The translations under genes were made by a program, and so were the position numbers. DNA of 64,000 bases. It comes from an uncultured bacterium. GTDB lineage: Bacteria > Omnitrophota > Omnitrophia > Omnitrophales > Aquincolibacteriaceae. The stretch covers positions 6,688-70,687 of the forward strand of contig CAZSFZ010000007.1 of NCBI GenBank assembly GCA_964606385.1, written 5' to 3'. The notes beneath the pieces are model-generated. The model ran no database searches and was not told the DNA's origin. It was given only the letters and a program-made list of their open reading frames with translations. This document shows positions 97-24,152 of the stretch, one piece after another. Position 1 is the first letter of the stretch; each line of letters begins with the position of its first letter.

Positions 97-2010
97 TCAT
101 TTTTCGCCATGATCGCGAGAGAGACGTCGAAACTCGCCATACGGGTCGATATCCTTTCTTCGGACAATAAAAGGCTCGTCTTTCCCCAGATACGCTTCCA
201 GCATAAACGCATGCTCTTTGATAAATTCATCCCATCCAGTTCCCTCCGGCAAAAAGACCTTTTGCTCGTCGACTGTTTCTTCGTTGTACTGCGAAAGTTT
301 TTCGGAAGGAACGGTTTCAAAAAACATGATGTAGTTTTTATTCGTCTGCGGCGCAAGGTCCGCATAATACATGGAAACGCGATCATCCATAAGGTAAAAC
401 GACGGTCGGATCTTTTTACTTCTTCGGGTGGCCTCGAACAGGTCTGTCGAGTTGAGGCACACCCTTGACCAAAAATCTTCGAACGCGGCGGCTCGCACCG
501 AGATCTGCCGGGGGAAAACATAAAAAAAACTCAAAAGTTCCATCAAGATCACTGCGCTTAGGATCGTGTTTTTCCAGGGGCTTCCAGCGGCATAGAAGCT
601 CAAAATCGGGAACATCAAAACCGGAACAAAATAATGGGCGGGAACAACATCGGACCCCGTCGGCAATATTAAAATAAGCAGGGTCACTAAAAACATTAAA
701 AGCACATACCGGTTTTTAAGGCCCGTGATCAGAAAAACGCTAAGTCCTGCCGTAAAAATAAAGTAATTCTTGAGGTAGGCCAACAAAAATTTCGCGCTAA
801 ACGTTTCTTCCCGCAAACCCCTTATGTCGCCCAAAAACTCACGCAACATCTCTCCGAGGCCGTAAGATGAGAAAAGAAGGGAAAGGTGAAGCGTTAAGAT
901 CACAAAAAAAACTCCCGCCAGATACCATAAAAAACACTTCCATCGTTTGAATAACAAGGAAAAACCAAAAAGAAACACCGTGATCATAAATAATCCGTTA
1001 TAACGGATCATCGCGGCCAAAACAAAAAAGGCGGCGGCCAAACCGTTCCTGTGTTTTCCGCGCTTGACCAAAAGATAAAACCCACAAAGAAAAAAGAGCA
1101 GAAGCATGGTTTCGCTGCTTTTCGTGAGGTCCACGGGAGGGATATAATCCGCACGAAAAGCCACGATGGTGAAAAAAAGCAGTAAGTACAAAAAAACGGG
1201 TATGCTTTCCTTAATCCCAAGTTTTTGCCCGTTCCCGATCTCCTCGGCCGATGCCTTCAAAACCGGCCCCAAGGCCGCAAAAGCCATGAAAATGCTGAGC
1301 CTTGCGATAAATTCGGCGTTTCCGAGCAGGACCATCGCGAACATATTAAGATGGACCGAAGGTGCGAACGGAAATTGCGGGATCATGGTCAAGGGCGTGC
1401 GATACCCCGTCGGCAAAACCCCTGTTTTAAGGCTGTGCGCTAACCAGTATTGTTCCGCGCCATCTCCGTTAAAAAGAGCGAAAAAAAGTTTTTCCCGAAA
1501 AACATATAAAACGCTGACCAAAAAAACCGCGTAGAGAATGGCGAAGCTTTTTGATCCGGATTTTTTGGGGCTGGCCGTCGAAACCAAAGTTCGGGGTCTT
1601 GAAAAAGAGGGCCAGGCCAAACTCCATCCCGCCAAAACTCCGAGGCCCATCAGCGCCGACATGATCTCACGGGTGATTTCAAGGCCTGTAAAAAGCTTGA
1701 TCGCTGTGGTGGAAAAAAAATAATAAAAATAATTGATCAAGAATCCCTTAAAGGATATTTCCAGCACGCTTTCTCCAGGCTTCCTGAAGCGGTGCGCGAC
1801 AAAAACGCCCGGCACAAAATAGATCATCAGGGTCCCTGCCGTGACCGTCGCCGCGGAAAGGGCTTTGATCCACGGCGGAGAATGAACGATCCCGACCCAA
1901 AACGCCGGCACTGTTCCCCACGGCAACCCCTGCGAAAGGGAAAGCGCTTCGACGGCGCCTATATAAAAAACCCATAACGAAAAAGAAAACAAAAAGTTCC
2001 TTGAGGTCAT
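97..2010 (-). CDS. Large polytopic membrane protein, 12 or more predicted TM segments plus a soluble C-terminal domain of about 150 aa. Possible GT-C fold glycosyltransferase or polymerase-like protein. Last gene of the radical-SAM operon.
   Basis: The long ORF spans 97..2142. I place the start at the ATG at 2008-2010 (MTSRNFLF...), which abuts the stop of the upstream gene at 2024. Many hydrophobic stretches. I recognise no specific catalytic motif. Confidence 0.5.
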   Translation of the reverse strand: MTSRNFLFSFSLWVFYIGAVEALSLSQGLPWGTVPAFWVGIVHSPPWIKALSAATVTAGTLMIYFVPGVFVAHRFRKPGESVLEISFKGFLINYFYYFFSTTAIKLFTGLEITREIMSALMGLGVLAGWSLAWPSFSRPRTLVSTASPKKSGSKSFAILYAVFLVSVLYVFREKLFFALFNGDGAEQYWLAHSLKTGVLPTGYRTPLTMIPQFPFAPSVHLNMFAMVLLGNAEFIARLSIFMAFAALGPVLKASAEEIGNGQKLGIKESIPVFLYLLLFFTIVAFRADYIPPVDLTKSSETMLLLFFLCGFYLLVKRGKHRNGLAAAFFVLAAMIRYNGLFMITVFLFGFSLLFKRWKCFLWYLAGVFFVILTLHLSLLFSSYGLGEMLREFLGDIRGLREETFSAKFLLAYLKNYFIFTAGLSVFLITGLKNRYVLLMFLVTLLILILPTGSDVVPAHYFVPVLMFPILSFYAAGSPWKNTILSAVILMELLSFFYVFPRQISVRAAAFEDFWSRVCLNSTDLFEATRRSKKIRPSFYLMDDRVSMYYADLAPQTNKNYIMFFETVPSEKLSQYNEETVDEQKVFLPEGTGWDEFIKEHAFMLEAYLGKDEPFIVRRKDIDPYGEFRRLSRDHGEK

Positions 2011-2023
2011 ATGTCGATCCGCT

Positions 2024-3346
2024 TTATCCTCCGCCAAATTGAGACAGGGTCTGTTCATAAGACAGTTTCTCGACCTGGGCGTATTGAAAAACCTTGAGAT
2101 TGAAATCGCGGAATTTCCGTATCGAGAGATAAGTTCCCGCATTGTTTGCGAAAACGACTAGCGTGAAAAGGATTAAAAAAATATTCCTTAGGGCCTTTAG
2201 ATCCGACAAGGAAAAACCTTGAAATAAAATAACCAAAAAAGGCAGCAGGGCCGGCAAAGAATATAAGACGCACGACTCAGGACTAAAAAAACAAAAAAAC
2301 GTCGTGTGGACTACTTCAAACCCGACCAGCATCATGAAGGCGGGGGACAAGCCGCCGGCCCTTCGCTTGAAAAAACCAAAAAGCGACGCGACGACCAGGA
2401 ATGAATAGGTCATTCCAAAAAGAACCTGTGGGACTACAAAGCCGCTCAAGCGCGTGTACACGATCGAATCCACAAAAAAAGCCCTCAGAACGAGGAAAAT
2501 GTTGTAAACATCCCAGCGAAACCACCTCTGTAGATATTCCATTGAAAACTTAACCATACCCACGGGACCGAATCCTTCGCCGCCAGATAAATTGTAGAAG
2601 CGGTAGTAAAAATCATAAAAAACATAAACGCTCCCCGTCACAAGAAGGCCCCAAAATAAAACCGCCAGGCTTTTCACAACAGCCCTTTGGAAACTTCCGG
2701 ACTTGCAGAAAAAAAGGACCCCGACAGCAACGGACAGCCATATCATGGCCGTTGAAGCCAGAACACAAAGACCGAGCAACGCTCCAAGGACATGGGTTTT
2801 AGGGCCGGAAGGGGAGGGCCTCACACAATACCAAAAAAGAAAATTTTGAAACAGCGTCGTGACAACGTACGTCTCAACATTGGATGAAAAGATCCAAAAC
2901 GAAAAACATGCCCCGTAAAGAAGCGTCAACGCTTCCGCAAAAAATCCCGCTCGCTCCCCTTCAAAGACAGCTTGAAAAATCCTGTAGCTAACGATCAGAT
3001 TCAACAACCCCATAAGGGCAAAAGGGAAAATCAAGGCGCTCTCGTTTTGGAACGGCAACGCCGAAAACAAAATCCGGCCTAGCCAATAAAGCGGGATAAC
3101 GACCCACGGGAAAAGAGGATGTTTTTTGACGTCGCCCGGGTCTTCGATGGCGTCCGGTCTTGGGATGAGATCTCCTTTGACTATGCTCACATACTCAAAA
3201 TCATCTCCAACAGCAGTTTTTTTGCCGTCCAAATAATTGCCGATCGGAAAAGCGAGCAGGTAAAAAACAAAGTAAAGACCGAGCGCCGCGGGGAACGCGC
3301 GCTTGGCTGTTTTTAAAAAAAAGTCAGTTCTTTTTGTGGAGTTCAT
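2024..3346 (-). CDS. Polytopic membrane protein, GT-C-like. It has an acidic DDFEY motif in the first predicted extracytoplasmic loop, as seen in PMT/ArnT-like glycosyltransferases.
   Basis: The ORF spans 2024..3526. The internal start MNSTKRTDFF... at 3346 avoids overlap with the upstream gene. Multiple TM helices. A GDDFEY loop follows TM1. Confidence 0.5.
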   Translation of the reverse strand: MNSTKRTDFFLKTAKRAFPAALGLYFVFYLLAFPIGNYLDGKKTAVGDDFEYVSIVKGDLIPRPDAIEDPGDVKKHPLFPWVVIPLYWLGRILFSALPFQNESALIFPFALMGLLNLIVSYRIFQAVFEGERAGFFAEALTLLYGACFSFWIFSSNVETYVVTTLFQNFLFWYCVRPSPSGPKTHVLGALLGLCVLASTAMIWLSVAVGVLFFCKSGSFQRAVVKSLAVLFWGLLVTGSVYVFYDFYYRFYNLSGGEGFGPVGMVKFSMEYLQRWFRWDVYNIFLVLRAFFVDSIVYTRLSGFVVPQVLFGMTYSFLVVASLFGFFKRRAGGLSPAFMMLVGFEVVHTTFFCFFSPESCVLYSLPALLPFLVILFQGFSLSDLKALRNIFLILFTLVVFANNAGTYLSIRKFRDFNLKVFQYAQVEKLSYEQTLSQFGGG

Positions 3347-5465
3347 GGTCTTTGTGTTTTTGACAGCTGATTTTGATAAACGTCCAGAAGACCCCCAAAA
3401 GCTCCTGGGGGTTATAGAGCAGGTTGAAAGGCATGAAACACTCATTCGTGCAAAAGCATGCTCTGCTCTTAATAAGGTTTCGTATTTTTTCGGCTCGCGG
3501 CGAACTCCAGATCTTTCCCCAATCAAACTTTGCTTCTCTTAGATTCCCGAAAGGCTCGGGCGACTGTTCGCATGGAAAAACATCCCCGTCGGGAGAAATG
3601 ATCGCGTTAAGAATGCCCGCAAAACAGCGCATGGGATATTTTTTTTCGGTGAAGATTTGTTGTGTTTTTTCGGCCATTCTTATTTTGTAGGCCAGCCGAA
3701 ATCTCTCGAAAAAACCTTGTGTTAGATGAAAATACCTGCTGTTGATGTCTTTTAAAAGAGAAACATATTCATCGGCCTGAATAGCGCCATTGAGCCTGCT
3801 CGCTTGGGCCGGTCTTTCCAGCACAAGGCTGTATTGGTCGGGCCTCATTTTTAAAATTTCCACTTCAAAGAACTTCGGGACCTGATCCTTGTTTTCGCGG
3901 GTATAGGTCGTCAAAATGCCGACGATCAGGTTGGGGTAGATCTGTTTTAACTTTTTTAACCGGAAAAAAGATTCGCGTGTTCTTTCGAAAGCCCCCGCCT
4001 TCTGCCGCATCGCGTCATGAACGTCCGGCGGCCCATCCAAAGAAAGTTTTATTGAAATGCTTGTCGGTGAGCATTGCTCTAAGATCCTCTTCACGCCGTC
4101 GACAACGGCGTCGGGGTCATACCCATTCGTCAACAACGTGATTAAAACAGGCTTCAGATTCTTGTGAAGAACGCCAACCGCCTCGACAACGTCTCCCCGA
4201 AGAAACGGTTCCCCCCCGGTTACGGTAACATATTTGATCTTTGGCATCTTTTTTGTCGCACGGTCCATTTCATCCAAAGACAACTCCAGGCCAGAAAAGG
4301 ACTTTCCTTCCCCCAAGAAACAATGTGAACAGGCCAGGTTGCAGCGGTGGGTTAAAAAAAAGGTCGCTTGTTCAGGGGTTGTTTTATCTTTCCAAAATAA
4401 TTTTCGAGCGCTGTCGACACATTCCGCCGCAAAAATAAGCGCCTTCGCAATCCTTCCAAAGGTCCATTCCGAGAGGCCAAGGCACATCCCGAGTCCGATA
4501 GCGTTCAGCTGAAAAGCCATAAAAAGGATATACAAGGCACTTTGCATCGGATGCTGTTGCTGGGAGGCATAAGCAAGAAAGTCTTGGTTTAGAAGCGTCA
4601 TGACCAGGAAAGACAGGCTGGCGATAAGCGCATAAAAGGGGTTAGAGAACAAAAGGCCCGCGAGGACCCCCAGGGTAAAAACAAATGCGAGCGGAAAAGA
4701 ATAAATGAAGTTTTCATTTACCGCAAAAAATTTCTTTTCCCGGGCTAAATCACACAAGACCTTGCTGTTAACGGCGACCTTGATCCCCTCTCTCCCCGCT
4801 CTAAACTCCCTTTTTAGCAAAGAAAAAATGCTGAATTTTTTGCTGTGCAGAACTTTTATATCCTCGGCAAAATAGCTTTTGTAACCGTTCTTTATCAGCC
4901 GGTAACCGAAATCGCTGTCTTCAGCGCTCGGCATATTTCCAAATCCGCCCACATTTATAAAAACATTTTTTTCTACCGCCGCAAAGGAAGAGCCCAAAAA
5001 AGAAGTCCATCCTTTGAGCTTGGAAAGGTTATAACTCGTCCAGTAATTCTTGTATTGACTGACCCACCCTTTATCCAGTTCTTCTTTAGCTCTGTTCCCC
5101 ACGATCATGTCGGGAACAGGCTGGATTTTATGGCCCCTGAAGTATTCCGAAAGGATTTCTCCCGTCCCCGGCGGGAGCACAACATCCGCGTCAACAAAAA
5201 CCAGCACACTCCCTTTCGCGGCTCGGGCGCCTATATTCCGGGCCGCTCCGGCCCCTTGTTGCTTTCCGTTTCGGATATAGCGGATTTTCGGCTCGTCCTT
5301 GTCCAATATCCGCAGGGCACCTTTAGCGCCGTCTGTGGACTCATCATCCACTAAAATGAGCTCTAATACGCCATTCTGGCTCAAAATGGATTCTACGGTT
5401 CGAGCGAGCGTTGTTCGAGCGTTATGAAAGGGAACGATGTATGAAAAAGTCCGGCCTGTATTCAT
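3324..5465 (-). CDS. Fusion protein: N-terminal family-2 glycosyltransferase (GT2), a central segment of 3-4 TM helices, and a C-terminal radical-SAM domain with a SPASM-like Cys-rich tail.
   Basis: The N-terminus reads YIVPFHNARTTLARTVESILSQ...LILVDDESTDG...VFVDAD, a GT2 signature. Hydrophobic linker. Then THRCNLACSHCF (CxxxCxxC) and TGGEPFL. C-terminal cysteines CFAGILNAIISPDGDVFPCEQ...CFCTNECF. Confidence 0.7.
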   Translation of the reverse strand: MNTGRTFSYIVPFHNARTTLARTVESILSQNGVLELILVDDESTDGAKGALRILDKDEPKIRYIRNGKQQGAGAARNIGARAAKGSVLVFVDADVVLPPGTGEILSEYFRGHKIQPVPDMIVGNRAKEELDKGWVSQYKNYWTSYNLSKLKGWTSFLGSSFAAVEKNVFINVGGFGNMPSAEDSDFGYRLIKNGYKSYFAEDIKVLHSKKFSIFSLLKREFRAGREGIKVAVNSKVLCDLAREKKFFAVNENFIYSFPLAFVFTLGVLAGLLFSNPFYALIASLSFLVMTLLNQDFLAYASQQQHPMQSALYILFMAFQLNAIGLGMCLGLSEWTFGRIAKALIFAAECVDSARKLFWKDKTTPEQATFFLTHRCNLACSHCFLGEGKSFSGLELSLDEMDRATKKMPKIKYVTVTGGEPFLRGDVVEAVGVLHKNLKPVLITLLTNGYDPDAVVDGVKRILEQCSPTSISIKLSLDGPPDVHDAMRQKAGAFERTRESFFRLKKLKQIYPNLIVGILTTYTRENKDQVPKFFEVEILKMRPDQYSLVLERPAQASRLNGAIQADEYVSLLKDINSRYFHLTQGFFERFRLAYKIRMAEKTQQIFTEKKYPMRCFAGILNAIISPDGDVFPCEQSPEPFGNLREAKFDWGKIWSSPRAEKIRNLIKSRACFCTNECFMPFNLLYNPQELLGVFWTFIKISCQKHKDHELHKKN

Positions 5466-5473
5466 TCGGGGTT

Positions 5474-6889
5474 TTAGCCTTTTCGCAATAGCTTCACAAG
5501 GGAGGTAAAGTTCCTTTTAAGGTCCCAGACCCCCCGGATATTCGAGATCCTTTTGAGAATGAACGAGGGCCTAAAATAAAAGCTCTTGTTGGCTTTCTTG
5601 ACCATCGCGATCGCTTTTTCCTTAGGAAAACCTTCAAGTTCCAAACTGCCGTTGATCTCCCATCCTCCGGCGAACGCCTGTTTTTTTTCTTTCATGTACC
5701 AGTGCCGGTCGGACAAGGCTTGGTGGTGCTGGGCCCAGTGATAAATCTCGGTTCCGGGGTATGCGATGGTTAAAAAAGTGAAGGCGAGATCGAGGTTGAG
5801 GGCTTTAATAAAGGCGATCGTTTGTTTCGCGTCCTCTTCGGTCTCTGTGGGGTTGCCGATCATAAAATTTCCGATCGTTTGTATTCCGACTTTTTTGCAC
5901 AGCGCTACAGCTTTTCGGATGTGATCGGTTGTCATTCCTTTCTTCAGCGCATTCAAAATTTTTTGACTCCCCGATTCGATGCCGAAACTGATAAAACAGC
6001 AACCGCTTTGTTTCATGGCCTTTAAAAGCGCTTCATCCAGAAGGTCCGCCCGGGTATTACAGCTCCAGTATATTTTTAACCTTCTTTTCTGGATCTCGGA
6101 ACAAACGTCGTAAACCCATTGCTTGTCCGCGGTGAAAGTGCTGTCTTTGATGACGAATTGTTTGATCCGGTATTTCTGGTAATCCTCTAGCATTTCACCA
6201 ACGACATTCGCGGGCGAACGAAGTCTGAAACGCTTTCCGTGAACTAAGGAGGCGCTGCAGTAAATGCATTGGTAAGGGCACCCCCGTGACGCCAGAATGG
6301 ATGTCAGCGGGAGGGATTTTGCGTAGTAAATATCGTATTTTTTGATATCTAAGAGATCCAGGTCGGGGAACGGAAGCTCATCAAGGTTTTCTATGGTGAG
6401 AGGGGGATCATTGACGATGACCCGTCCTTCTTTTTTATAAATCAACCCTCGAATGTCCGCTAAAGTCGTTCCACTTTCCAGAGCCTTCACGAGGTTATAA
6501 ACCTCTTTTTCGCCTTCCCCATAAAACAAAAAATCGATATTTTCCGTGAACTGAAGCAGTTCTGCCCGGGTAGCGTTCACATGATGCCCCCCTACAATGA
6601 TCTTTAGGGATGGCTTTCTCTTTTTGAGCTCCGCGGTCAGCTCCAGAACCCCTCCGATCTGGATCGTCATGGCGCTAAGACCCACCATCACCGGCTCTTC
6701 TTTTAAGATCTCTCCAACGAGTTTTTCCAGCGTATGGCCCTGAATAGACGCATCGATCAGCCTGACATCGACGCCTTTTTTGCGTAAAAAAGTCGCGATG
6801 TATAAGACGCCCAGCGGAGGCAGTCCCAAGTGCTCTTTTCTTCCAAAAACAATGGGGGGATAAACCAAGACTACTTTGGCCATGAACAC
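5474..6889 (-). CDS. B12-binding-domain radical-SAM enzyme (class B; methyltransferase or rearrangement type).
   Basis: N-terminal cobalamin-binding Rossmann-like region (VVLVYPP...GLPPLGVLYIATFLRKKGVDVRLID). SRGCPYQCIYC radical-SAM cluster motif. Length of 471 aa is typical for this class. Confidence 0.7.
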   Translation of the reverse strand: MFMAKVVLVYPPIVFGRKEHLGLPPLGVLYIATFLRKKGVDVRLIDASIQGHTLEKLVGEILKEEPVMVGLSAMTIQIGGVLELTAELKKRKPSLKIIVGGHHVNATRAELLQFTENIDFLFYGEGEKEVYNLVKALESGTTLADIRGLIYKKEGRVIVNDPPLTIENLDELPFPDLDLLDIKKYDIYYAKSLPLTSILASRGCPYQCIYCSASLVHGKRFRLRSPANVVGEMLEDYQKYRIKQFVIKDSTFTADKQWVYDVCSEIQKRRLKIYWSCNTRADLLDEALLKAMKQSGCCFISFGIESGSQKILNALKKGMTTDHIRKAVALCKKVGIQTIGNFMIGNPTETEEDAKQTIAFIKALNLDLAFTFLTIAYPGTEIYHWAQHHQALSDRHWYMKEKKQAFAGGWEINGSLELEGFPKEKAIAMVKKANKSFYFRPSFILKRISNIRGVWDLKRNFTSLVKLLRKG

Positions 6890-6896
6890 ATCGCTT

Positions 6897-7910
6897 TCAT
6901 TGGTTTTTCCCCGTTGTTTTTAACCATTCTTGAATCGTTGACCGATCGAATGAAAAAACCAGATTCGCCTCTAGACAACAAGCGCTTAAACAGCTCCTGC
7001 ATGACGAGTCTTTCAGTCGTTGAAAGGCTCCCTTGAAGCCATGCTGCAGGACGTTCGCGGGAGCGGTGTGCCCGATCATGGGGGAGCACGGGTACATGTC
7101 GCCATTCGTATCGATGTTGCAAAACAGCTTCCCCGCCCAGCATTTTGGCATCCCCCGAAGTTGTTCTGTAGAGGTGGTATCTTGAAAAAAAGGCCAGTCG
7201 GCCACCGCTCTCAAGTAGCACCGTGACGAGACGATGGGCGCGCCCGCATCTTTCATTTCGATTAAACGGTTAAAAGTTTTTCGGTAAGCATCCGCTGAAG
7301 CAAAAATGTTTTCCGAAGAACCGATGCCTCGGGGGTGATAAGGAACCTGGAACAGGGTTTTAAAGCCATATTCTTTGGCTTTCTCAGCGATAAACTCCGT
7401 GCAATGGATGTTGTGTTGGGTGAGCACGGTCAGCGTCCAGACAGGAATCCTTCCGCGAATAAACTCCACGGCGCGAAAAAATTTGTCATACGAACCGGGT
7501 TCCCTGTTCCGGTCGTGCAGTTCTCTCTCGCCGTCAAAACTGAGGATCAAAAAATCCAGGTCCTTGATTTCGTCGAATCTCTGAGGCACAAGATAGCCGT
7601 TGGAGTCGCAATTGACATAAAGACCTTTTTCCTTCGCGCGACCAATAAGACGGCCGATGTCTTTGCGTAACAACGGTTCCCCGCCCCACAAGCTCAATTT
7701 CTGCACCCCTGCCGCGGCCATTTCATCGATCAGCCCGAGGAGCTCCTTGGTGCTCATTTCTTTTTGTCTTCTTAGCGGTATGTCGCAATAAGCACATTTG
7801 CTGTTGCAGCGATTCGTCACGGAAAGCATGACGCTTAGCGGCACTCTCGCTCCGAAGAGATTGGCCCTCAAGGCGCCCAGGCCCATGGCCACATTATTTT
7901 TGAGCTTCAT
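6897..7910 (-). CDS. Radical-SAM/SPASM domain protein.
   Basis: SVTNRCNSKCAYCDIPL (CxxxCxxC), GGEPLL, and a C-terminal Cys cluster CWAGKLFCNIDTNGDMYPC...CRSCLSACC. Its ATG overlaps the stop of the upstream gene in an ATGA arrangement. Confidence 0.7.
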   Translation of the reverse strand: MKLKNNVAMGLGALRANLFGARVPLSVMLSVTNRCNSKCAYCDIPLRRQKEMSTKELLGLIDEMAAAGVQKLSLWGGEPLLRKDIGRLIGRAKEKGLYVNCDSNGYLVPQRFDEIKDLDFLILSFDGERELHDRNREPGSYDKFFRAVEFIRGRIPVWTLTVLTQHNIHCTEFIAEKAKEYGFKTLFQVPYHPRGIGSSENIFASADAYRKTFNRLIEMKDAGAPIVSSRCYLRAVADWPFFQDTTSTEQLRGMPKCWAGKLFCNIDTNGDMYPCSPMIGHTAPANVLQHGFKGAFQRLKDSSCRSCLSACCLEANLVFSFDRSTIQEWLKTTGKNQ

Positions 7911-9316
7911 GGTTTCCCGTCAGCCGCATGGTTTTTTAAATACCGGTCCGCGATCTCCAGCCCCATGGCGATCACATCGTCCATGTTGCCGTATTTGAAA
8001 GAGCCGTTCCGCCCGAAACACACGAGGTTTGCGAACGGGTCAAGGAGCCTGCGGGCCGCCGCGACGTGGTCCCGGTAATTCATCTGATAAATGGGGTAAC
8101 TGTACCGGACCTTATGATAAAAAAATCCCCTCGCCCTTTTTGCTTTTTCGGTCTGGAGCCCTAATTTTGCGATATCCCGCAAGATCCTTTCGCGGATCTT
8201 CTCGGGGGGCATCTCCCACGTCTCATCTCCGTAATCACAGCTGATCTCGGCGCAAATAACGGTTCGGCCTGCAGGGAACCCGTGCTTCGAGAAGTTTTTG
8301 GGTTCGGAGATCCGGTTACTGAAAAATCCTTCTTCGGGCAGATAGATCCACTGGCTGTCGCTGAAAGAATCCACGTCGAGCACGAGATAAAAAAAGATCA
8401 GGGACCGGAATCTCAGCTTTTCAAAAACCTCTTTCTTCCCAAGGAGTTCTTGGTCCGCCAGGAGCTCCGGAAGTTCCGTCATGGGAATGGTTGACAGCAG
8501 GTCCGTAACATCGGCTTCCTGTTCTTGCCCCCCGTTTTCAAATGCCACGGACCGGATCCGAGTCTTCTGACCTTCTTTTTTTTCGCTAAGAATTCGCGTA
8601 ATGCGGGTATTTAAAAGCACTTGAGAGCCGTTCTCGAGGATCTTTTTCTTCAGATTCTCGGCAATCCGCCCGATCCCTCCCTCTTTGGGATAGTAAAAAT
8701 GGTTCGCGTAAGCGCGTGCCGGTCCTTGTGAGCGAAAGAGGGTTTCTTGCATGGCGCTCCACAAACTAAGCAGATTGATCCTTTCCTGCGCCCAATCTTT
8801 GGAGATCTGGTGGGGCGGAAGTCCCAACACTTTGTGGGTATAGGTGCCAAAGAAGATCCGGTAGAGTGTTTTCCCGAAGCGTTTGGTGACCCAGGATTCG
8901 AACGAGTCCTCGCCCCCGGGACAAAAAAGACCGCACAGCTTCGCCGTCACATAATCATAAAAACACTTCAGCAGCGTGCGTAGCGGCATGTTCTCCAGGA
9001 TGTTGTGGGTGTTTAGGGGATAAATGAAAAAGCGGTCATTCATAAAGATCTCGCTTTTTCTTTTTTGGACGATGAGATTCTCTCCCATGAGCTCTTTGAG
9101 CAGGCGAATCACGGATTGTCTTTTGGAGTGAAACCGGTGAGGGCCGTAATCATACGACAAGCCTTGCAACTCGCGGCTTGCGGCAAGACCGCCAACCATG
9201 GGCTCCTTTTCAAGCACCAGGACTTTGACGCCTTGGCTGGAAAGCCTGTAAGCGCAGGATAAACCCGCCAATCCTGCTCCCAAAATAACAGGGCTTGATT
9301 TTTTAGTTTCTGTCAC
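7907..9316 (-). CDS. FAD/NAD(P)-binding oxidoreductase of the amine-oxidase / UDP-galactopyranose-mutase / desaturase superfamily.
   Basis: N-terminal dinucleotide-binding motif VILGAGLAGLSCAYRL...VLVLEKEPMVGGLA. YGPHRFHS motif resembling the Glf/amine-oxidase family. 469 aa. Confidence 0.6.
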   Translation of the reverse strand: MTETKKSSPVILGAGLAGLSCAYRLSSQGVKVLVLEKEPMVGGLAASRELQGLSYDYGPHRFHSKRQSVIRLLKELMGENLIVQKRKSEIFMNDRFFIYPLNTHNILENMPLRTLLKCFYDYVTAKLCGLFCPGGEDSFESWVTKRFGKTLYRIFFGTYTHKVLGLPPHQISKDWAQERINLLSLWSAMQETLFRSQGPARAYANHFYYPKEGGIGRIAENLKKKILENGSQVLLNTRITRILSEKKEGQKTRIRSVAFENGGQEQEADVTDLLSTIPMTELPELLADQELLGKKEVFEKLRFRSLIFFYLVLDVDSFSDSQWIYLPEEGFFSNRISEPKNFSKHGFPAGRTVICAEISCDYGDETWEMPPEKIRERILRDIAKLGLQTEKAKRARGFFYHKVRYSYPIYQMNYRDHVAAARRLLDPFANLVCFGRNGSFKYGNMDDVIAMGLEIADRYLKNHAADGKP

Positions 9317-9347
9317 GTTCGCTTATCCTGGTAAAAATGCTGTTTTT

Positions 9348-10565
9348 TTATCGCGATATGCGCCGGCTTTCTTCCGCTAATAACCGCTTCATGCGATTCA
9401 GATCCTCCAGAGCCGCTGAAAGCTCCTTGGGATTCCACTTATTGGGTTTGTTGGGTCTTGTGCCTTGGCTTAGTTTGCCCTTAACGCGCCTTAAAGCGCT
9501 CGAAGCATTTCCTCGCCAAGACGAATAAAATTTTATTCTTTTCTTCCATCGGTTGATGCTCGAAGCAATGTATCCGGCCAATCCTTTTTTCCGTAATCGC
9601 CCCAGCCGGGTAAAAATCTTTTGGCCCAAAGACGCCTTCCCAAGATTCTCTTCATAACAGCTCATCAGGCATCCCTGGCACCCTTTTCGATTAATGGCGG
9701 AAATGATTTCACTTCGCCGGGTGGAATTCCAAATATCTTTTAAGCTTTTTTCCTTCACGGAGCCCAGTAGGTGTTCAGGGCCGCTCAGGACCCAGCAGGG
9801 ATAGACTTCTCCTCTAGCATTAATGGGGCATGAAAGGTCTAAGGCGGGGCATTTTTTTGGATTGGCGCCTTTCTTTCCGGTCAGAGATCGGAACATTTCG
9901 TAAAGATACTTTTCAGGGTTGGTGCCAATGCCATACTCACAACAGGTTTCAATCACGTTGAAGATCGTCTGCTTAAAAAGCGGCGCGTCTTGGTCGGAAA
10001 GATAAAAGCTTTTTTCTTGTTTCCCCGGATCCAAAAACATCGGGTTGAATGGCTGCAGCTTAAATGCGGTGACGCCTTGTTGCTTGGCCAGCTCGATAAG
10101 ATATGGCAAGTGTTGAAAATTGCCGGCCGTCACAACGGTAGCGATCGTGGATTCGATCCCGTATTTTTTTAAATTCTTCAATGCCGTCAGGGCGCGGTCA
10201 AAGCTGCCTTTTCCCCTGAGCGCGTCATGCATTTCGCGAGGGCCTTCAACGGAAACGTTTACCACGTCCACGCCCGCACAAAGAAGCTCGTAAGCGCGTT
10301 TTTCATCGAGCAAAAGACCGTTGGTGGTGACGCAGGTCAGCATTTTTTGTTTCTTCGCGAAGGCGATGAGAGAAGCTAGATCGTCCCGCAGGAGCGGCTC
10401 CCCCCCGCTGAAAACGGCCGTCGTGGCGCCCACCGCAGCACCGTCTCGAATGACGTTTTCCCAGGTGCTCGTCCCCAGCTCTTCGGTGCTCGTTAACGGA
10501 ATGTCGCACATGCGGCACCGCAGATTGCAGCGGGTCGTGATGGAAAGAATAAGATCTTTAGGCAT
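9348..10565 (-). CDS. Radical-SAM/SPASM domain protein with a basic C-terminal tail. Paralogue of the gene at 6897-7910.
   Basis: SITTRCNLRCRMCDIPL, SGGEPLL, and a C-terminal Cys cluster CPALDLSCPINARGEVYPC...CQGCLMSC. Confidence 0.7.
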   Translation of the reverse strand: MPKDLILSITTRCNLRCRMCDIPLTSTEELGTSTWENVIRDGAAVGATTAVFSGGEPLLRDDLASLIAFAKKQKMLTCVTTNGLLLDEKRAYELLCAGVDVVNVSVEGPREMHDALRGKGSFDRALTALKNLKKYGIESTIATVVTAGNFQHLPYLIELAKQQGVTAFKLQPFNPMFLDPGKQEKSFYLSDQDAPLFKQTIFNVIETCCEYGIGTNPEKYLYEMFRSLTGKKGANPKKCPALDLSCPINARGEVYPCWVLSGPEHLLGSVKEKSLKDIWNSTRRSEIISAINRKGCQGCLMSCYEENLGKASLGQKIFTRLGRLRKKGLAGYIASSINRWKKRIKFYSSWRGNASSALRRVKGKLSQGTRPNKPNKWNPKELSAALEDLNRMKRLLAEESRRISR

Positions 10566-11730
10566 CGTGGGTCTTGGCCAAAAGCTCCTTCTCGTAATTC
10601 TCGATGACTCGCTGGGCCTCTCTTAAGAGCTCGGCGCGGTCTTCTCGGCCATGGATCTGTTTAAGAAAATTCTCCGCGATCCCCTGGAGAGAGTCCGATT
10701 CCGGATGGGCCCAACAGGTTTGCAGGCAGGGTTTTTGACATTGTTTCATGCCGGCCCTGGCCTTGCCGGCCTCGGCGCTTTCCAGGCACGCGTCCAGCCC
10801 GCCTTCCGCGATATTCCCAAAACTCGCCCCGCAGCTGCGGACTTCGCCGTCCGGACCGATATTGAGAAAAACAAAAGGATTGCACTTCCATTGTTTTTTT
10901 GTGAGAGCGCCCTTGAAGTGGTCGACCCAGAGATAAGGGTCGTGCAGAAAAGCCACCAGCCCGTGCTGTTTCTGGTATTCGACGATCCTGTCGATTTGAT
11001 GTTTTAAGGCGTCCACTTTTTCACCGCGGATCCAAAAAGGAGCGTTGGGGGAAGTGTTCTGCATATCGTCTTGAGCGACCACCACGGGATGATAGACCAA
11101 GCATTCCACCCCCAAACTCTTCGCCAGAGGGATCATATCGTAAAGCTCGTCCACGTTTTCCTTCATGATGGTGACCCAGGAGGAGATCTGAGGTCCGGCG
11201 CCGGCTTTCTTTTTTGCTTCCGCGAGGCGTTTTAAGGCGGTGGTTGCCTTGAGAAACGCCCCTTTTTGCCGTACGGCATCATGGGTTTTTTCTTGGCTTC
11301 CGTCCAGGGAAACAGCGATGTTTTGCAGTCCCGAGCAAACGATCTTTTGGGCGAGATCCTCGGTGATTAACGATCCATTCGAAACCGCCTCGGCTTTAAG
11401 TCCTTTGCGGACCGCGTGCCTGATCAGATCGAAGATGTCTTTACGGAGGAACGGCTCTCCTCCGGTAAAAAGCACCACGCAGTCCCGTCCCCAGGCCGCG
11501 ATCTCGTCGAGCGTTTTCATGACGCTTCCGGTTGAAAGCGAGTGCCCTTTGAGGATGTTGACCACGCCGCACATTTGGCATTTGAACGTGCACTCGTGGC
11601 TCAGGCTGATGTAGATCCAGTACGGCTTGGCAAAAAGGTGTCCCGACCGTTCGGAAAAGTGATATTCCAGGTTCTTTTTGAGCTCTTGCAGCGGGTCTGT
11701 TTTTAGATTCATTTTCCGGGATTCTTCCAT
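10558..11730 (-). CDS. Radical-SAM/SPASM domain protein. First gene of the operon.
   Basis: SLSHECTFKCQMCG, TGGEPFL, and a C-terminal cluster CNPFVFLNIGPDGEVRSCGA...CQKPCLQTC. The start is placed at MEESRKMNLK (11728-11730). The ORF extends upstream to 11790. Confidence 0.65.
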   Translation of the reverse strand: MEESRKMNLKTDPLQELKKNLEYHFSERSGHLFAKPYWIYISLSHECTFKCQMCGVVNILKGHSLSTGSVMKTLDEIAAWGRDCVVLFTGGEPFLRKDIFDLIRHAVRKGLKAEAVSNGSLITEDLAQKIVCSGLQNIAVSLDGSQEKTHDAVRQKGAFLKATTALKRLAEAKKKAGAGPQISSWVTIMKENVDELYDMIPLAKSLGVECLVYHPVVVAQDDMQNTSPNAPFWIRGEKVDALKHQIDRIVEYQKQHGLVAFLHDPYLWVDHFKGALTKKQWKCNPFVFLNIGPDGEVRSCGASFGNIAEGGLDACLESAEAGKARAGMKQCQKPCLQTCWAHPESDSLQGIAENFLKQIHGREDRAELLREAQRVIENYEKELLAKTHDA

Positions 11731-11845
11731 GGACAGTACTGCGTAGTTTACCCGCACTAAAATAAAAAAGCCATCGAGATTAACTCTCAATGGCGATTGA
11801 TTTTAGATCGTTCGAAGCTTCTGTTTTTACGGCTTCCCGAACTGC

Positions 11846-13003
11846 TTATCCTTTCACCGCCGCCAAGGGAGATAATTCCACCATAATTTCCACAAGGTCG
11901 GCCTGCTGCTTCATGACTTCAGCGATGTCTTTGTAAGCTCCCGGGGCTTCGTCAAGCTCGTGGGCGCTTCGGATGCCGTGGACAATGCCTTGAGCCTCCA
12001 TCTTCTGGATCTCCGCCTGAAGGTCCAGTGAGCGCCTCGCCTCTTTCCTTCCCATCTTTCTTCCCGCGCCGTGGGAACAAGACTCGAAGCTCTCGGGGTT
12101 GCCTTTTCCCGTCACAATATAGCTTTTTGCTCCCTGGGAACCCGGGATAATACCGGTCTCTCCCGCTTGGGCCGACGTCGCGCCCTTACGGTGCACCCAG
12201 ACCTCCTGGCCAAAATGACGCTCCTTTCGCGCGTAGTTGTGAGCGATATTGATGAGCGGTTCAAAAGAGCAGGCGATGTTCCGCGTAAAGCATTCCGCGA
12301 TCTGCTCCATCATGAGCTTTCTGTTCCCGAAGGCAAACTCCACGCAATAATTCATCTCACGGATATAGTCCTGCCCTTCCTCGCTTTGTTCCGGTAAATA
12401 GGCGAGCTGGTGAGCGGGAGAAACGGGTGAGCCCTGCTTCATATTGAGGGTGGACGCGATCCTGTTGTAATGGTCCGCAACTTGCTTTCCAAGATTCCGG
12501 CTCCCGCTATGGACCATCACCCAGACCGCTCCGTCAGAGCCTTTTTGGATCTCAATAAAGTGGTTTCCGCCGCCGAGCGTTCCGATCTGGAAGGTGGCGT
12601 GTCGATATTCCCTTTCGCATACCGCGCCTCTTTCAAATCGTTTTCCGGGCATATAGGCATTATCCTGCCGTTCTTTGTGGTGATTAAAACCGATAGGGAT
12701 GGCGGCGCGGATCTGCCCCATGATCTTTTTCAACGTTTCCCGATCTATGGTTTCCAGGCTGGAGCGCATGGCACACATTCCGCAGCCGATATCGACGCCC
12801 ACGGCGTTCGGAATGATCACGCCCTTGGCGGCCAGAACGCCTCCGATAGGCATGCCGTAACCCTGGTGGCTGTCGGGCATAACAGCAATGTGATGAAAAG
12901 CAAAAGGGAGGTTGGCGAGGTTCCGGAGCTGGCTCATCGCGCCTTCTTCGAGGTCCTCGAGCCACATCTTGATCGGGATCTTTTCAGTGCGGCAGGTCTT
13001 CAT
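11846..13003 (-). CDS. rtcB: RNA-splicing ligase RtcB (3'-phosphate/5'-OH RNA ligase).
   Basis: IPIKMWLEDL...FHHIAVMPDSHQGYGMPIGGVLAAKGVIIPNAVGVDIGCGM is colinear with E. coli RtcB. The ORF extends upstream to 13069. I put the start at the internal M of MKTCRTEK... Confidence 0.8.
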   Translation of the reverse strand: MKTCRTEKIPIKMWLEDLEEGAMSQLRNLANLPFAFHHIAVMPDSHQGYGMPIGGVLAAKGVIIPNAVGVDIGCGMCAMRSSLETIDRETLKKIMGQIRAAIPIGFNHHKERQDNAYMPGKRFERGAVCEREYRHATFQIGTLGGGNHFIEIQKGSDGAVWVMVHSGSRNLGKQVADHYNRIASTLNMKQGSPVSPAHQLAYLPEQSEEGQDYIREMNYCVEFAFGNRKLMMEQIAECFTRNIACSFEPLINIAHNYARKERHFGQEVWVHRKGATSAQAGETGIIPGSQGAKSYIVTGKGNPESFESCSHGAGRKMGRKEARRSLDLQAEIQKMEAQGIVHGIRSAHELDEAPGAYKDIAEVMKQQADLVEIMVELSPLAAVKG

Positions 13004-14080: not shown

Positions 14081-14173
14081 CGGAGGGGGGGGGATTTGAA
14101 CCCCCGGTACCTGCTTTCACAAGTACAGCGGTTTAGCAAACCGCCGCCTTAAGCCGGGCTCGGCCACCCCTCC
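14081..14173 (-). tRNA. tRNA-Ser, anticodon GCU, with a long variable arm.
   Basis: The reverse complement folds as acceptor GGAGGGG/CCCCTCC, T-arm GGGGG-TTCAAAT-CCCCC, anticodon stem GCGGT/ACCGC, and loop TTGCTAA. No CCA is encoded. Confidence 0.8.
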
Positions 14174-14280: not shown

Positions 14281-14368
14281 CGGAGAGGGCGAGATTCGAA
14301 CTCGCGAGGCCTTTTGGGCCTACCCGCTTTCCAGGCGAGCGCACTAGACCAGGCTATGCGACCTCTCC
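14281..14368 (-). tRNA. tRNA-Ser, anticodon GGA, with a long variable arm.
   Basis: The reverse complement has acceptor GGAGAGG/CCTCTCC, T-arm GCGAG-TTCGAAT-CTCGC, anticodon loop CTGGAAA, and variable-arm stem GGCC/GGCC. Confidence 0.8.
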
Positions 14369-15789: not shown

Positions 15790-18303
15790 CTATTTGGAAC
15801 TTTTCTTGGAAGCTTTTTCGCTCAAAAGCTCGAGCTGGCTTGAGTCGGACTCTTCTTCTTTGGCGACCACACGCGTAGCGGAGGCGATCTTGTCCTTGTC
15901 TTTCAGGCGCATGACATGCACCCCCACGGCGTTCCGTCCGGAAGTCCGGATCTGGCTGACCGGGCAGCGGACGACCATGCCGCTTGTTGTGACGATGATG
16001 ATCTCGTCTTCTTCGGCAACTGTGAGCACGTTCACGACCTTGCCGTTCTTTTCGGAGACCTTGATATTGATGATCCCCTTGCCTCCCCGCGACTGAATGC
16101 GGTACTGCGAAAAAAGCGTTTTCTTGCCGAAGCCGTTCTGGGTGATGGTAAGCGCCGTGGCCTTTGGGTTCACGATCTCGGCCGCGATCACCTCGTCGCC
16201 TTTGGCGAGGTTCACGCCGCGAACGCCCGTCGCGTTGCGGCCCATTTCGCGAACATTGTCTTCCTTGAAGCGGATCGCTTTACCGTTCCGGGTCGCGAGG
16301 AAGATCTCGTCCTTGCCGGAAGTGATCTTGCAGGACACGAGTTCGTCTTTGTCGCGCAGTGAAATGGCGTTGATGCCGGTCGAACGGGGCCTTGAATATT
16401 CGATCAGATTGGTTTTCTTGATCACGCCCTGCGCGGTCACCATGACCACGTACCGCTTGTCGTCGAACTCCTTCACCTGAAGGAATCCCGAAACTTGCTC
16501 GTTCGGCCCCAAGGAAAGGAAATTGACGATCGCCTTGCCTTTGGCTTGCCGCGACGCCTGCGGGATGTCATAGGCCTTGCGCCAATAGACGCGCCCCTGG
16601 TTCGTGAAAAACATGATGAAGTCATGGGTCGAAGCGAGGAACAAGTGCTCGATAAAATCCTCGTCGTCGCGCACGCCCGCGCCGGACACGCCGCTCCCGC
16701 CCCGGTTCTGGCGGCGGTACATGCTGACCGGAATGCGTTTGATATAACCCGCGTGCGAGATCGTGATCAACACGTCTTCCTGCGCGATCAGGTCTTCGAT
16801 GTCGATATCCCCTTCCGCGGCCACGATCTGGGTGCGTCGTTCATCCCCGTATTTTTTGAGGATCTCTTGCGTTTCTTCTTTGATGATCTCGAGGACTTTT
16901 TTACGGCTCTTCAGGATCGATTTGTAGTATTCGATCTTTTTGATGAGCTCGAGATATTCCTCGTCGATCTTCAGCCTTTCAAGCTGCGTGAGCCTCTGGA
17001 GCTGCAGTTCGAGAATGGCTTTGGCCTGGATGTCTGTGAGCTTGAGAGCTTTGATCAATCCTTCCTTGGCAAGCTCCGGGCTTTTGGCTGTGCGGATGAT
17101 CTTGATCACTTTGTCGATATTCGCGATGGCTTTTTTGTAGCCTTCGAGGATATGCGCCCGCTTCTCGGCCTTGTCGAGTTCAAAGCGCGTGCGGCGGACG
17201 ATGACCTCGGCCCGGTATTCGATGAACTTCTCGAGCATCTGCTTGATGTTCAGGATGCGCGGCTGCCCGTCTACGAGCGCGAGCATGATGCAGCCGAACG
17301 AGCTCTGCATCTGGGTGTGCTTGTAAAGATTGTTCAGGATCACCTGCGCCACAGCGTCCCGCTTAAGCTCGATCACGACGCGCATGCCATCGCGGTCCGA
17401 TTCGTCCCGGATGTCGGAAATGCCCTCGATCTTCTTGTCTTCCACGAGGCGAACGATCGATTCGATCAGGTTCGTTTTGTTCACCTGATAGGGGATCTCG
17501 GTAATGACGATCGCGTCCTTCTTATTGCGGCCGGTCTCGATCGCGGCCTTCGCGCGCATTACGACCTGCCCGCGTCCTGTTTCGTAGGCTTTCTTGATGC
17601 CGTCACGTCCAACGATCAGCGCTCCGGTCGGGAAATCGGGCCCCGTGATGATCTTGGAGATCTCTTTGACCGAAATTTCGGGATTATCGATCGTCGCGAT
17701 AATGGCGTTCACGACCTCCGTCATGTTGTGCGGCGGAATGTTGGTCGCCATCCCGACCGCGATCCCTGAGGAACCGTTCACCAGCAGGTTCGGGATCTTC
17801 GCGGGAAGGATCGAGGGCTCGGTCAGCGACTCGTCAAAGTTCGGCGTAAAATCAACGGTCTCTTTTTCGATGTCCGCGAGCAGTTCGCCCGCGACATTGG
17901 CGAGGCGCGCTTCCGTGTAACGCATGGCGGCCGCGTTATCGCCGTCGATCGAACCGAAGTTCCCTTGCCCTTCCACGAGCGGGTAGCGGAGCGAAAAGTC
18001 CTGCGCCATGCGGACAAGCGACTCATAAACCGCGGTGTCCCCGTGCGGGTGGTATTTCCCGAGCACTTCTCCGACGATACGGGCGGATTTCTTGTAAGGT
18101 TTATTGTGCGCGAGCCCGAGCTCGTTCATCGCAAAAAGAATGCGCCGGTGCACCGGCTTCAATCCGTCGCGGACATCGGGAAGCGCGCGGCCGACGATAA
18201 CCGACATCGAATAATCGATGTAGGAATCCTTCATTTCCTCTTCGATCGGCCTCGGCACGATCTTCTCGTTCATCGCGTATAAATTCTTCTGGGGTTCTGC
18301 CAT
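15790..18303 (-). CDS. gyrA: DNA gyrase subunit A.
   Basis: [27 protein letters not shown]...YHPHGD, followed by C-terminal beta-pinwheel repeats. 837 aa. Confidence 0.95.
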
Positions 18304-18328
18304 TTTTTGCGTTCCTTTTTATGCTTTA

Positions 18329-20896
<2,568 letters not shown>

Positions 20897-21184
20897 TTAT
20901 TTCCCGACCAGCACCCGAACCTCTTTAACTGCTTGTTCCCCGAGCGCCGCCTGCGCCCGTTTTAATAGCGATTGCCGGTATCGTTGGCTGATCTCGAACG
21001 CCAGGACGGAATCGCTCACGTGAACATACAGGATCCCTTTGGAGGAAAGCTGCGGTCTGGTTTTTTTTACAAGTTTTTCCCCTGCGATGCTTGGCCAGGA
21101 GTCTATCAACAAGCTCCGTTTTTGTTTTTCGGGGTCTTCAAAACCCCGGATCACCTTCGGAAGGATCGATCGAATCTCGTCCAT
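20897..21184 (-). CDS. dciA: DUF721 domain protein, likely DciA (replicative-helicase operator/loader). It sits where recF normally is.
   Basis: 95-aa protein between dnaN and gyrB. Its size and position match the DUF721/DciA family. Confidence 0.55.
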   Translation of the reverse strand: MDEIRSILPKVIRGFEDPEKQKRSLLIDSWPSIAGEKLVKKTRPQLSSKGILYVHVSDSVLAFEISQRYRQSLLKRAQAALGEQAVKEVRVLVGK

Positions 21185-21217
21185 GAAATACCGTTCTATT
21201 ATCGTCCTTTTTCGCCG

Positions 21218-22318: not shown

Positions 22319-22453
22319 GGAAAACTCCTTATGCTTTTATGCTATATTTTAAAAAACAGTAATCAAAGTAGTAGAACTTGTGAAATTGTGGATATCCTAC
22401 ACAACTATCTTAAAAAGAACGATATATAAAAAAGTTTTTTTGTGGAAAAAAAG

Positions 22454-24130: not shown

Positions 24131-24152
24131 AGTTCACTATAATCCACGCCTC

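Follow-up and report, generated by a model that had tools for sequence, protein, structure and literature searches.

Radical S-adenosylmethionine (SAM) enzymes are known to act on sugars in antibiotic pathways (BlsE, DesII, AprD4) and in the formation of two lipid head groups (HpnJ and calditol synthase, Cds). For the mainstream assembly of envelope glycans on polyprenyl carriers, we know of no such radical-SAM step, and literature searches found none. In the HpnI/HpnK/HpnJ pathway to the hopanoid cyclitol ether and in the Cds pathway, a glycosyltransferase (GT) installs a sugar on a lipid and a radical-SAM enzyme is proposed to rearrange it; a 2026 review of lipid-modifying radical-SAM enzymes describes separate GT and radical-SAM proteins only, namely HpnI/HpnJ and Cds (PMC13459092). 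Here we describe a gene in a 64,000-nt stretch of an uncultured Omnitrophota bacterium (assembly GCA_964606385.1, contig CAZSFZ010000007.1, positions 6,688 to 70,687 of the forward strand; the whole stretch is hereafter called the window) whose 713-amino-acid (aa) product joins a family 2 GT (GT2) domain, a transmembrane (TM) module, and a radical-SAM domain in one polypeptide. A preliminary description of the window knew of no characterized protein with this domain combination; full-text literature searches turned up none, and protein-database records of the family gave nothing beyond generic names such as "glycosyltransferase."

Results

Domain organization of the fusion protein

The open reading frame (ORF) ran from ATG to stop in one continuous frame, as described previously, and lies on the minus strand, which had not been stated (Table 1). 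Pfam placed Glycos_transf_2 (PF00535) at residues 8-171 (E = 3e-28, 99.3 bits against a cut-off of 23.3), Radical_SAM (PF04055) at residues 371-533 (E = 1e-17, 65.3 bits against 29.5), and SPASM (PF13186) at residues 614-673 (E = 1e-8, 35.7 bits against 21.5). The postulated N-terminal domain thus scored as GT2 in the hidden Markov model (HMM) search, and both radical-SAM motifs reported earlier were located, THRCNLACSHCF at residues 372-383 and TGGEPFL at residues 416-422. An AlphaFold2 model of the full-length protein, calculated from a 24-sequence alignment, contained all modules with a mean predicted local distance difference test (pLDDT) score of 86: a GT-A domain (7-207), helices at 213-233, 245-273, 276-301, and 306-357 (52 residues), a partial TIM barrel (366-549), and then a small beta/helix domain bearing the C-terminal cysteines.

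Recurrence and conservation

The fusion protein (P0001) had a 100% identical match in NCBI and Logan, the identical 713-aa protein being present on three contigs. A 713-aa protein with 82% identity and the same architecture came from an independent JGI sample, and about two dozen more proteins of 670-720 aa carried both domains, at identities down to 24%; two of these relatives were labeled Candidatus Omnitrophota/Omnitrophica by NCBI. A profile built from 24 fusion relatives was searched against 1.84 billion representative proteins, and the best 150 matches were examined. Most were full-length alignments in a single stretch (660-790 aa). Re-scoring of these 150 yielded at least 89 new full-length fusions, each a separate 50%-identity cluster, as well as 20 radical-SAM-only proteins (~360 aa) and three proteins with TM and radical-SAM parts and no GT2 domain (P0115, P0148, P0203). 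The GT2-TM-radical-SAM architecture is common in metagenomes, not rare.

Conservation and charge statistics were computed over the 116 full-length fusions collected. In the GT2 half, the DxD motif (D92xD94) was kept in 113 sequences and H207 in 112, and the acidic ED pair was kept in 103 (E182) and 96 (D183). The CX3CX2C and GGE motifs of the radical half were present in all 116 fusions; C614, C632, C670, and C672 were kept in 115-116 and C676 in 102. Because the motif sets of both halves are conserved across the family, both catalytic centers are under purifying selection. All 116 sequences aligned without interruption through residues 240-370, and GC content was 0.46-0.49 over 3-6 kb, with no compositional break at the junction. 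The earlier opinion that a frameshift or assembly join is unlikely was therefore borne out by the 116 fusions (at least 89 clusters) with both catalytic motif sets conserved and by the flat GC content. The ORF is predicted to encode a genuine bifunctional, membrane-anchored enzyme.

Fused and split forms

Relatives were scanned in one genome per species. Matches spanning residues ~5-700 were found in metagenome-assembled genomes (MAGs) of Omnitrophota, Planctomycetia, Chloroflexota (Anaerolineales, Limnocylindria), Myxococcota, Clostridia, Melainabacteria, Gammaproteobacteria, and Desulfuromonadales, and the unit, fused or as a coupled gene pair, occurred in at least eight phylum-level groups. 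When ORFs were called at the scanned MAG loci, the match proved in most to be two adjacent genes, a GT2-TM gene of ~300-370 aa followed by a radical-SAM gene of ~355-390 aa. The two genes overlapped or abutted in loci L008, L009, L019, L022, and L025 and were separated by 14-77 nt in L018, L026, and L033; split, adjacent, overlapping halves were seen in Planctomycetia, Anaerolineales, Myxococcota, Melainabacteria, and others. Since the halves occur either fused or as adjacent genes with overlapping stop and start codons (Rosetta-stone evidence), the two activities probably work together, and this gene arrangement supports functional coupling of the GT2 and radical-SAM halves.

Three further GT2/radical-SAM architectures were represented by P0071, P0087, and P0035. 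The last (812 aa) has the order GT2, GtrA/DPMS_TM, methyltransferase, radical SAM; the others include GT2-TPR-radical SAM/SPASM (808 aa) and the reverse order, radical SAM-GT2 (619 aa). The existence of these architectures indicates that the pairing arose more than once, and P0035, through its GtrA/DPMS_TM domain, independently ties radical-SAM tailoring to a lipid-carrier GT. In addition, giant proteins of 1,500-4,400 aa (P0116, P0122, P0133, P0146, and others) showed 4-9 separate matches each to the GT2 part of the profile and appear to be multi-GT2 polyproteins. Very long proteins have been reported for Omnitrophota (2026 preprint).

The GT2 half

The N-terminal domain has the GT-A three-dimensional fold; the GT2 family inverts configuration. 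No curated NCBIfam equivalog scored above its cut-off on this half, the best being MftF (TIGR03965; 87.5 bits against 280). The ArnC model reached 15.6 bits, and HpnI was not among the 21 NCBIfam families matched; Pfam gave a weak Glyco_transf_21 match. In the fold comparison with polyprenyl-phosphate transferases, the scores were 16.2 for GtrB, 16.2 for DPMS, and 16.0 for ArnC; the markers of these monoglycosyl transferases, PRK10714 (ArnC) or a GtrA/DPMS_TM domain, were not found in the fusion. The QxxRW or Q(Q/R)xRW motif was not conserved: helix 213-233 reads LLKREFRAGRE, with no tryptophan, and positions 219-220 were variable over the 116 sequences. A processive-synthase channel of six or more TM or interfacial helices was likewise not found, two spans plus interfacial helices being predicted. 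The fusion belongs neither with the canonical processive synthases nor with enzymes of the DPMS/GtrB/ArnC type. In the structural model, its membrane module is of the minimal cellulose-synthase-like kind, resembling PcManGT, hyaluronan synthase (HAS), and BcsA.

Membrane module and topology

The preliminary description counted three to four hydrophobic helices at about residues 250-340. Hydropathy analysis retained three hydrophobic segments (~253-275, 278-300, and 311-340), of which probably only two span the membrane. Topology was derived from charge statistics. The mean number of lysine plus arginine residues was 3.2 before helix 1, 0.28 in the loop between helices 1 and 2, 2.2 in the next loop, and 3.8 after helix 3. 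The third segment was amphipathic and weakly hydrophobic (mean Kyte-Doolittle hydropathy 0.76, 2.5 lysine plus arginine residues). Because of this charge pattern and the amphipathic third helix, the membrane block most likely has an interfacial helix in addition to two spans, which would leave the two catalytic domains in the cytoplasm. An enzyme dependent on SAM and reductant must be cytoplasmic, in agreement with this topology.

The radical-SAM half

Assignment to the radical-SAM superfamily followed from C375/C379/C382, the invariant GGE(P) at residues 417-420, and the PF04055 match above cut-off. The C-terminal extension had been described as a Cys-rich SPASM domain. The Pfam match and the cysteines uphold part of this description, but the pattern, C614-X12-G627-X4-C632 ... 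C670-X-C672-X3-C676, is not the canonical one of seven cysteines (CX9-15GX4C ... CX2CX5CX3C ... C), which binds two auxiliary clusters. It comprises the first SPASM element and then a noncanonical CXCX3C in place of CX2CX5CX3C, with four universal cysteines. Four are enough for one auxiliary cluster, and the domain is therefore closer to a twitch domain than to a two-cluster SPASM domain. It resembles a twitch or partial-SPASM domain with, in addition to the SAM cluster, a predicted single auxiliary [4Fe-4S] cluster.

In structure and sequence, the radical domains are most closely related to BlsE and DesII. SkfB, CteB, SuiB, and PqqE were also among the matches to the radical half; the models for maturases of ribosomally synthesized and post-translationally modified peptides (RiPPs) of the SkfB, CteB, and PqqE type all scored far below cut-off on the fusion.

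The coupled 440-aa membrane protein

The 440-aa gene that follows overlaps the 3' end of the fusion gene by 23 nt (ATG at 3346) and is translationally coupled to it. A homologue search returned five sequences, a small unannotated family with an invariant GDDFEY after TM1, including invariant D48 and D49. Since the alignment was this shallow, the AlphaFold2 model was of medium confidence (pLDDT 63, predicted template modeling score 0.67). In a Foldseek search with the model, the best 18 matches were all GT-C enzymes (STT3, AglB, PglB, ALG12, ALG3, DPY19, PIG-M, ArnT, Pmt1/2/4), with probabilities of 0.8-1.0 and weak E-values (4e-3 and worse). A Pfam match to PMT_2 (E = 3.6e-4) was obtained only on a mechanically extended ORF of 500 aa (2024-3526); on the trimmed 440-aa protein (2024-3346) it was gone, and no match was seen even at E = 0.05. 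We therefore treat the PMT_2 match as fragile, as marginal HMM matches on polytopic membrane proteins can be. Pairwise BLASTP between the 440-aa protein and the PMT_2 protein adjoining the L007 fusion gave no match. The fold matches make the 440-aa protein a probable GT-C-fold glycosyltransferase.

The gene cassette

The fusion gene belongs to a cassette of eight tightly packed minus-strand genes (97-11790) with intergenic gaps of at most 56 nt (Table 1). The three small radical-SAM proteins were each closest to BlsE in the PDB (E = 5e-12 to 2e-14). For the B12-binding radical-SAM protein directly upstream of the fusion, the best NCBIfam match was HpnJ (TIGR03471; E = 1.4e-70, 238.5 bits against a cut-off of 577.6) and the best PDB match was the aminoglycoside dehydratase AprD4 (E = 4e-29). 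The flavin adenine dinucleotide (FAD) enzyme matched NF005548 with 323 bits, below cut-off, and aligned over its full length with UDP-galactopyranose mutase (UGM; PDB 4dsg, E = 7e-18). Every accessory enzyme was thus closest to a sugar-acting enzyme, BlsE, AprD4, or UGM, and the cassette appears to build an unusual cell-envelope sugar.

The last gene, for a 637-aa membrane protein, had no family match (Pfam blank even at E = 0.05); L090 has an orthologue with 55% identity in the corresponding place. A terminator-like 10-bp hairpin with a T-run (11770-11794, minus strand) lies between the upstream rtcB and the first radical-SAM gene. Because this hairpin overlaps the called TTG start and the L090 orthologue aligns from residue 30, the true start of that gene is probably ~30 codons downstream. 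An Rfam scan at gathering thresholds found no riboswitch anywhere in the window, including near the operon.

Table 1. Positions of the fusion gene, its predicted parts, and the other cassette genes in the window
Feature	Position (nt)	Strand	Evidence or remark
GT2-TM-radical SAM fusion ORF, 713 aa	3324..5465	minus	ATG start, stop included; sixth gene of cassette
GT-A fold GT2 catalytic domain, residues 7-207	4845..5447	minus	D40, DxD 92-94 (nt 5184-5192), ED 182-183, H207
Membrane module, residues 213-357	4395..4829	minus	Hydropathy, AlphaFold2 helices, family-wide lysine plus arginine distribution
Interfacial helix, residues 213-233		minus
TM1, residues ~253-275	4641-4709	minus
TM2, residues ~278-300	4566-4634	minus
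Long helix, residues 306-357	4395-4550	minus	Read as interfacial helix plus tether
Radical-SAM core, residues 366-549	3819..4370	minus	CX3CX2C at C375/C379/C382 (nt 4320-4343), GGEP 417-420
SPASM/twitch-type auxiliary Fe-S domain, residues 610-680	3426..3638	minus	C614, G627, C632, E633, C670, C672, C676
Radical-SAM enzyme, first cassette gene	10558..11790	minus	Pfam, NCBIfam; PDB best BlsE
Radical-SAM/SPASM enzyme, 405 aa	9348..10565	minus	PDB best BlsE, E = 1.7e-14
FAD enzyme like UDP-galactopyranose mutase	7907..9316	minus	Pfam Amino_oxidase, NAD_binding_8, GLF
Radical-SAM enzyme, 337 aa, BlsE-like / PTO1314-like	6897..7910	minus	Orthologues in L090 (73%), L003 (35%), L001 (32%)
B12-binding radical-SAM enzyme, directly upstream of fusion	5474..6889	minus	Pfam B12-binding plus Radical_SAM
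Polytopic membrane protein, 440 aa, downstream of fusion	2024..3346	minus	Start and NCBI gene call
Membrane protein, 637 aa, ~12 hydrophobic segments, ~130-aa soluble C-terminus	97..2010	minus	Last cassette gene in window

Gene neighborhoods of related fusions

The contig with an NCBI-labeled Omnitrophota protein (L090) matched the cassette gene for gene, with unchanged order of the eight genes and identities of 54-80% (fusion, 54%). It also contained an extra 95-aa ORF without Pfam match (2845-3132) between the radical-SAM/SPASM and FAD genes, where the window has only the gap 9316-9348. Orthologues of the 440-aa protein were found directly downstream of the fusion in L090 (57% identity) and in L001/L002 (44%). 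Two PMT_2 genes lay near the L001/L002 fusion, a PMT_2 gene abutted the L007 fusion, and GT87 genes stood beside the fusion in L003 and L005. Genes for B12 radical-SAM proteins adjoined the fusion or lay in its vicinity in L001/L002, L004-L008, L019, L088, and L090. Three loci (L004, L006, L089) resembled lipopolysaccharide or O-antigen loci, with NeuB, Wzy_C, GT9, and GT4 as well as genes of a heptose pathway (SIS, PfkB, cytidylyltransferase, HAD).

A small-panel tblastn was too insensitive for GT-C genes, and a Pfam census was chosen instead, covering 111 neighbor ORFs from 13 phylogenetically distant loci. The most frequent families in the census were NDP-sugar (nucleoside diphosphate sugar) epimerases/dehydratases with six members, followed by six additional radical-SAM proteins, five GT2, three PMT_2, two Wzy_C, and two DegT. 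By gene content, the fusion neighborhoods are assigned to envelope-glycan loci.

In a distant clade (~25% identity; L003 513-7630 and L005 1-8440), the fusion adjoins a conserved block of a ~875-aa multihaem cytochrome, genes for cytochrome c biogenesis (ResB-like and CcsA-like), two genes with an FGE-sulfatase domain, and genes for a TPR protein and a GT87 enzyme. In L004, a membrane protein of the LPG_synthase_TM family (12097-12963, E = 2e-41) directly follows the fusion. The family includes HpnL, from the hpnIJKL cluster of hopanoid synthesis, and the L004 protein may act as a flippase-like partner.

Other features of the window

The replication-origin neighborhood comprised gyrA (15790-18303), gyrB (18329-20875), dnaN (21218-22318), and dnaA (22454-23809) on the minus strand and yidC, mnmG, parA, and parB (24885-30740) on the plus strand; its position (15790-30740) shows that the cassette is chromosomal, ~10 kb from dnaA. 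Two tRNA genes (14081-14173 and 14281-14368, minus) were found between a SIMPL-domain gene and serS. A putative beta-glucan or cellodextrin utilization locus on the plus strand (30907-36802) is suggested by genes for a solute-binding protein, a glycan phosphorylase of family GH94 (32162-34702), and a protein of glucoamylase-like/DUF3131 type. A biotin-type cluster (38217-44921, plus) contained a BioB-like radical-SAM/BATS protein, a short-chain reductase, a ketoacyl synthase, a class I/II aminotransferase, a 387-aa ORF without Pfam match (42407-43570), and a class III aminotransferase.

Discussion

Proposed role and alternatives

We propose tentatively, at somewhat below an even chance, that the GT2 domain loads a sugar on a lipid-linked acceptor, the tethered radical domain tailors this sugar, and a GT-C enzyme transfers it to the envelope. 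At the cytoplasmic face of the membrane, the GT2 domain would move a sugar from a nucleotide sugar to the acceptor, which would be polyprenyl phosphate or a polyprenyl-diphosphate glycan. The tethered domain would then take hydrogen from that sugar and, with the auxiliary cluster, oxidize, epimerize, or decarboxylate it. Further tailoring, or preparation of the donor, would fall to the neighboring radical-SAM enzymes that resemble BlsE and AprD4/HpnJ and to the flavoenzyme that resembles UGM. After flipping of the product, the coupled GT-C-fold transferase would decorate an envelope glycan.

The preliminary description took the physical fusion to imply that both domains act in succession on the same membrane-bound substrate. 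The membrane tether, a membrane module like that of PcManGT/HAS, and the probable GT-C partner make this plausible; the substrate of the radical domain could just as well be the nucleotide-sugar donor before transfer. Several observations weigh against the lipid-linked route. No flippase was identified in the window. The nearest curated families of the GT2 half (MftF, EpsD, PglI, TuaG) are all far under cut-off and have varied acceptors. The GT-C call depends on a model with pLDDT 63, weak Foldseek E-values, and a Pfam match that did not reproduce, and only about half of the loci that were examined yielded a GT-C gene. The best characterized sugar-acting relatives, BlsE and DesII, use soluble substrates. 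In the split systems the radical half is a separate gene and therefore can be a soluble cytoplasmic protein; the enzyme there is soluble (~360 aa), and a membrane-bound substrate is not required.

The last two points also speak for the main alternative, in which the radical domain first tailors a soluble nucleotide-sugar donor (deoxygenation, decarboxylation, epimerization) and the fusion channels an unusual or unstable donor to the GT2 domain, the anchor serving only the GT2 step. The nearest radical relatives act on soluble nucleoside or NDP-sugars, the ~360-aa soluble form occurs in many genomes, and the operon flavoenzyme resembles UGM, an NDP-sugar enzyme. We regard this order of events as unlikely, although it retains appreciable weight: TM-anchored radical-SAM proteins without GT2 exist (P0115, P0148, P0203), and the tether holds the radical domain at the membrane surface. 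Moreover, HpnJ and Cds, the two known radical-SAM enzymes that act after a GT in lipid pathways, are proposed to use the lipid-linked sugar (PMC13459092).

That precedent, in which radical-SAM chemistry follows a GT on a sugar already linked to lipid (PMC13459092), also speaks for a membrane-lipid head-group pathway like HpnI/HpnK/HpnJ or Cds, in which the GT2 domain would glycosylate an end-product lipid, radical-SAM enzymes would then rearrange its head group (a cyclitol formed through ring contraction is one example), and the glycolipid would stay in the membrane. Such a pathway is less likely still, and we consider it improbable. HpnJ is the best-scoring family for the B12 radical-SAM protein beside the fusion, but the score is less than half of the cut-off and the best PDB match of that protein is AprD4. 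The weak Glyco_transf_21 match in the fusion, a family that contains HpnI, is countered by the absence of HpnI from the NCBIfam families matched. The LPG_synthase_TM gene after the L004 fusion would fit a head-group pathway, whereas no squalene or hopene genes were present among the 38 window ORFs scanned, and the genes that recur around the fusions (GT-C, Wzy_C, GT9, heptose, NDP-sugar) suggest glycans that are transferred to the envelope and not a glycolipid as end product. Orthology with HpnI/HpnJ was rejected, there being no equivalog-level match to TIGR03471 or to the HpnI model.

Very improbable is a RiPP maturase, in which a SPASM-type radical domain would cross-link a precursor peptide and the GT2 domain would glycosylate it in the manner of glycocins. 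SkfB, CteB, SuiB, and PqqE among the radical-half matches and the extra ORF in the L090 cassette would agree with such a role, which is nevertheless unlikely because no precursor gene, no RiPP recognition element (RRE), and no peptidase or exporter were found: the gaps of the window operon leave no space for a precursor gene, the radical core starts straight after a membrane helix with no room for an RRE/PqqD-like domain, and the neighborhoods, mostly of sugar-metabolism genes, have no peptidase or ABC exporter. The accessory enzymes also match sugar-acting enzymes best. With neither an RRE/PqqD-like domain nor a co-encoded precursor, this reading was rejected.

An artifact, that is, a frameshift or assembly chimera joining two neighboring genes, which a single indel could in principle produce given the two-gene versions elsewhere, is ruled out for practical purposes by recurrence (the identical protein on three contigs, the 82%-identical protein from an independent sample) and by conservation (116 fusions continuous through residues 240-370, flat GC content at the junction).

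Significance

The advance would be an envelope-glycan pathway variant with a built-in radical tailoring step and not a new principle, because both superfamilies are well known and the function described here is a prediction. It is possible, though doubtful, that the fusion and its split homologues form a widespread, unrecognized class of membrane-tethered radical-SAM enzymes that tailor polyprenyl-linked sugars, the products being installed by GT-C enzymes on the surface of Omnitrophota and many other uncultured phyla. If so, envelope sugars would be chemically unusual, for example deoxygenated, decarboxylated, C-branched, or ring-contracted. The conserved GT2-radical-SAM unit with its probable GT-C partner offers a concrete entry point to radical-sugar chemistry of the envelope and could explain unidentified envelope sugars of uncultured bacteria. 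Its natural tether also suits it to studies of the way in which a radical enzyme gains access to a membrane-bound substrate, and it adds a marker cassette for annotating such loci.

Comparison with known systems

Among membrane GT2 enzymes, the fusion is nearest to PcManGT (PDB 6YV7), a GT2 mannosyltransferase that reportedly depends on dolichyl phosphate and has a "minimal cellulose-synthase-like" fold, and to the processive synthases HAS and BcsA. It differs from all three in lacking a conserved QxxRW and an N-terminal TM helix and in its low identity (12-17%), and none of them has a radical-SAM domain. MftF, the mycofactocin GT2, and TIGR04283, an arsenosugar-associated GT2, ranked first and fourth among the NCBIfam matches of the GT2 half, and the pathways of both include a radical-SAM enzyme. 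Because the scores are far below cut-off (87.5 against 280 and 56 against 182, respectively), the fusion is not a member of either family; the gene context also differs.

On the radical side, the fusion is only 16-22% identical to BlsE (cytosylglucuronate decarboxylase) and other twitch/SPASM radical-SAM enzymes (SkfB, anSME, and BtrN), from which it is set apart by its membrane tether, its fusion to a GT, and CXCX3C in place of CX2CX5CX3C.

At the level of the pathway, ArnC/ArnD/ArnT, GtrA/GtrB/GtrC, and DprE1/E2 with Emb/Aft are lipid-carrier glycosylation routes with a GT-C enzyme as the last step; they place a cytoplasmic GT2 beside a GT-C-fold membrane transferase, as is probably the case here. 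In the ArnD and DprE1/E2 precedents the sugar is tailored on the lipid carrier, and DprE1/E2 (decaprenyl-phospho-ribose epimerase) feeds GT-C arabinosyltransferases. The related fusion P0035 shares the GtrA/DPMS TM domain with these lipid-carrier routes. In HpnI/HpnK/HpnJ and Cds the partners are separate proteins, whereas here they are joined, and the gene context is that of envelope glycans and not of hopanoids or glycerol dialkyl glycerol tetraethers.

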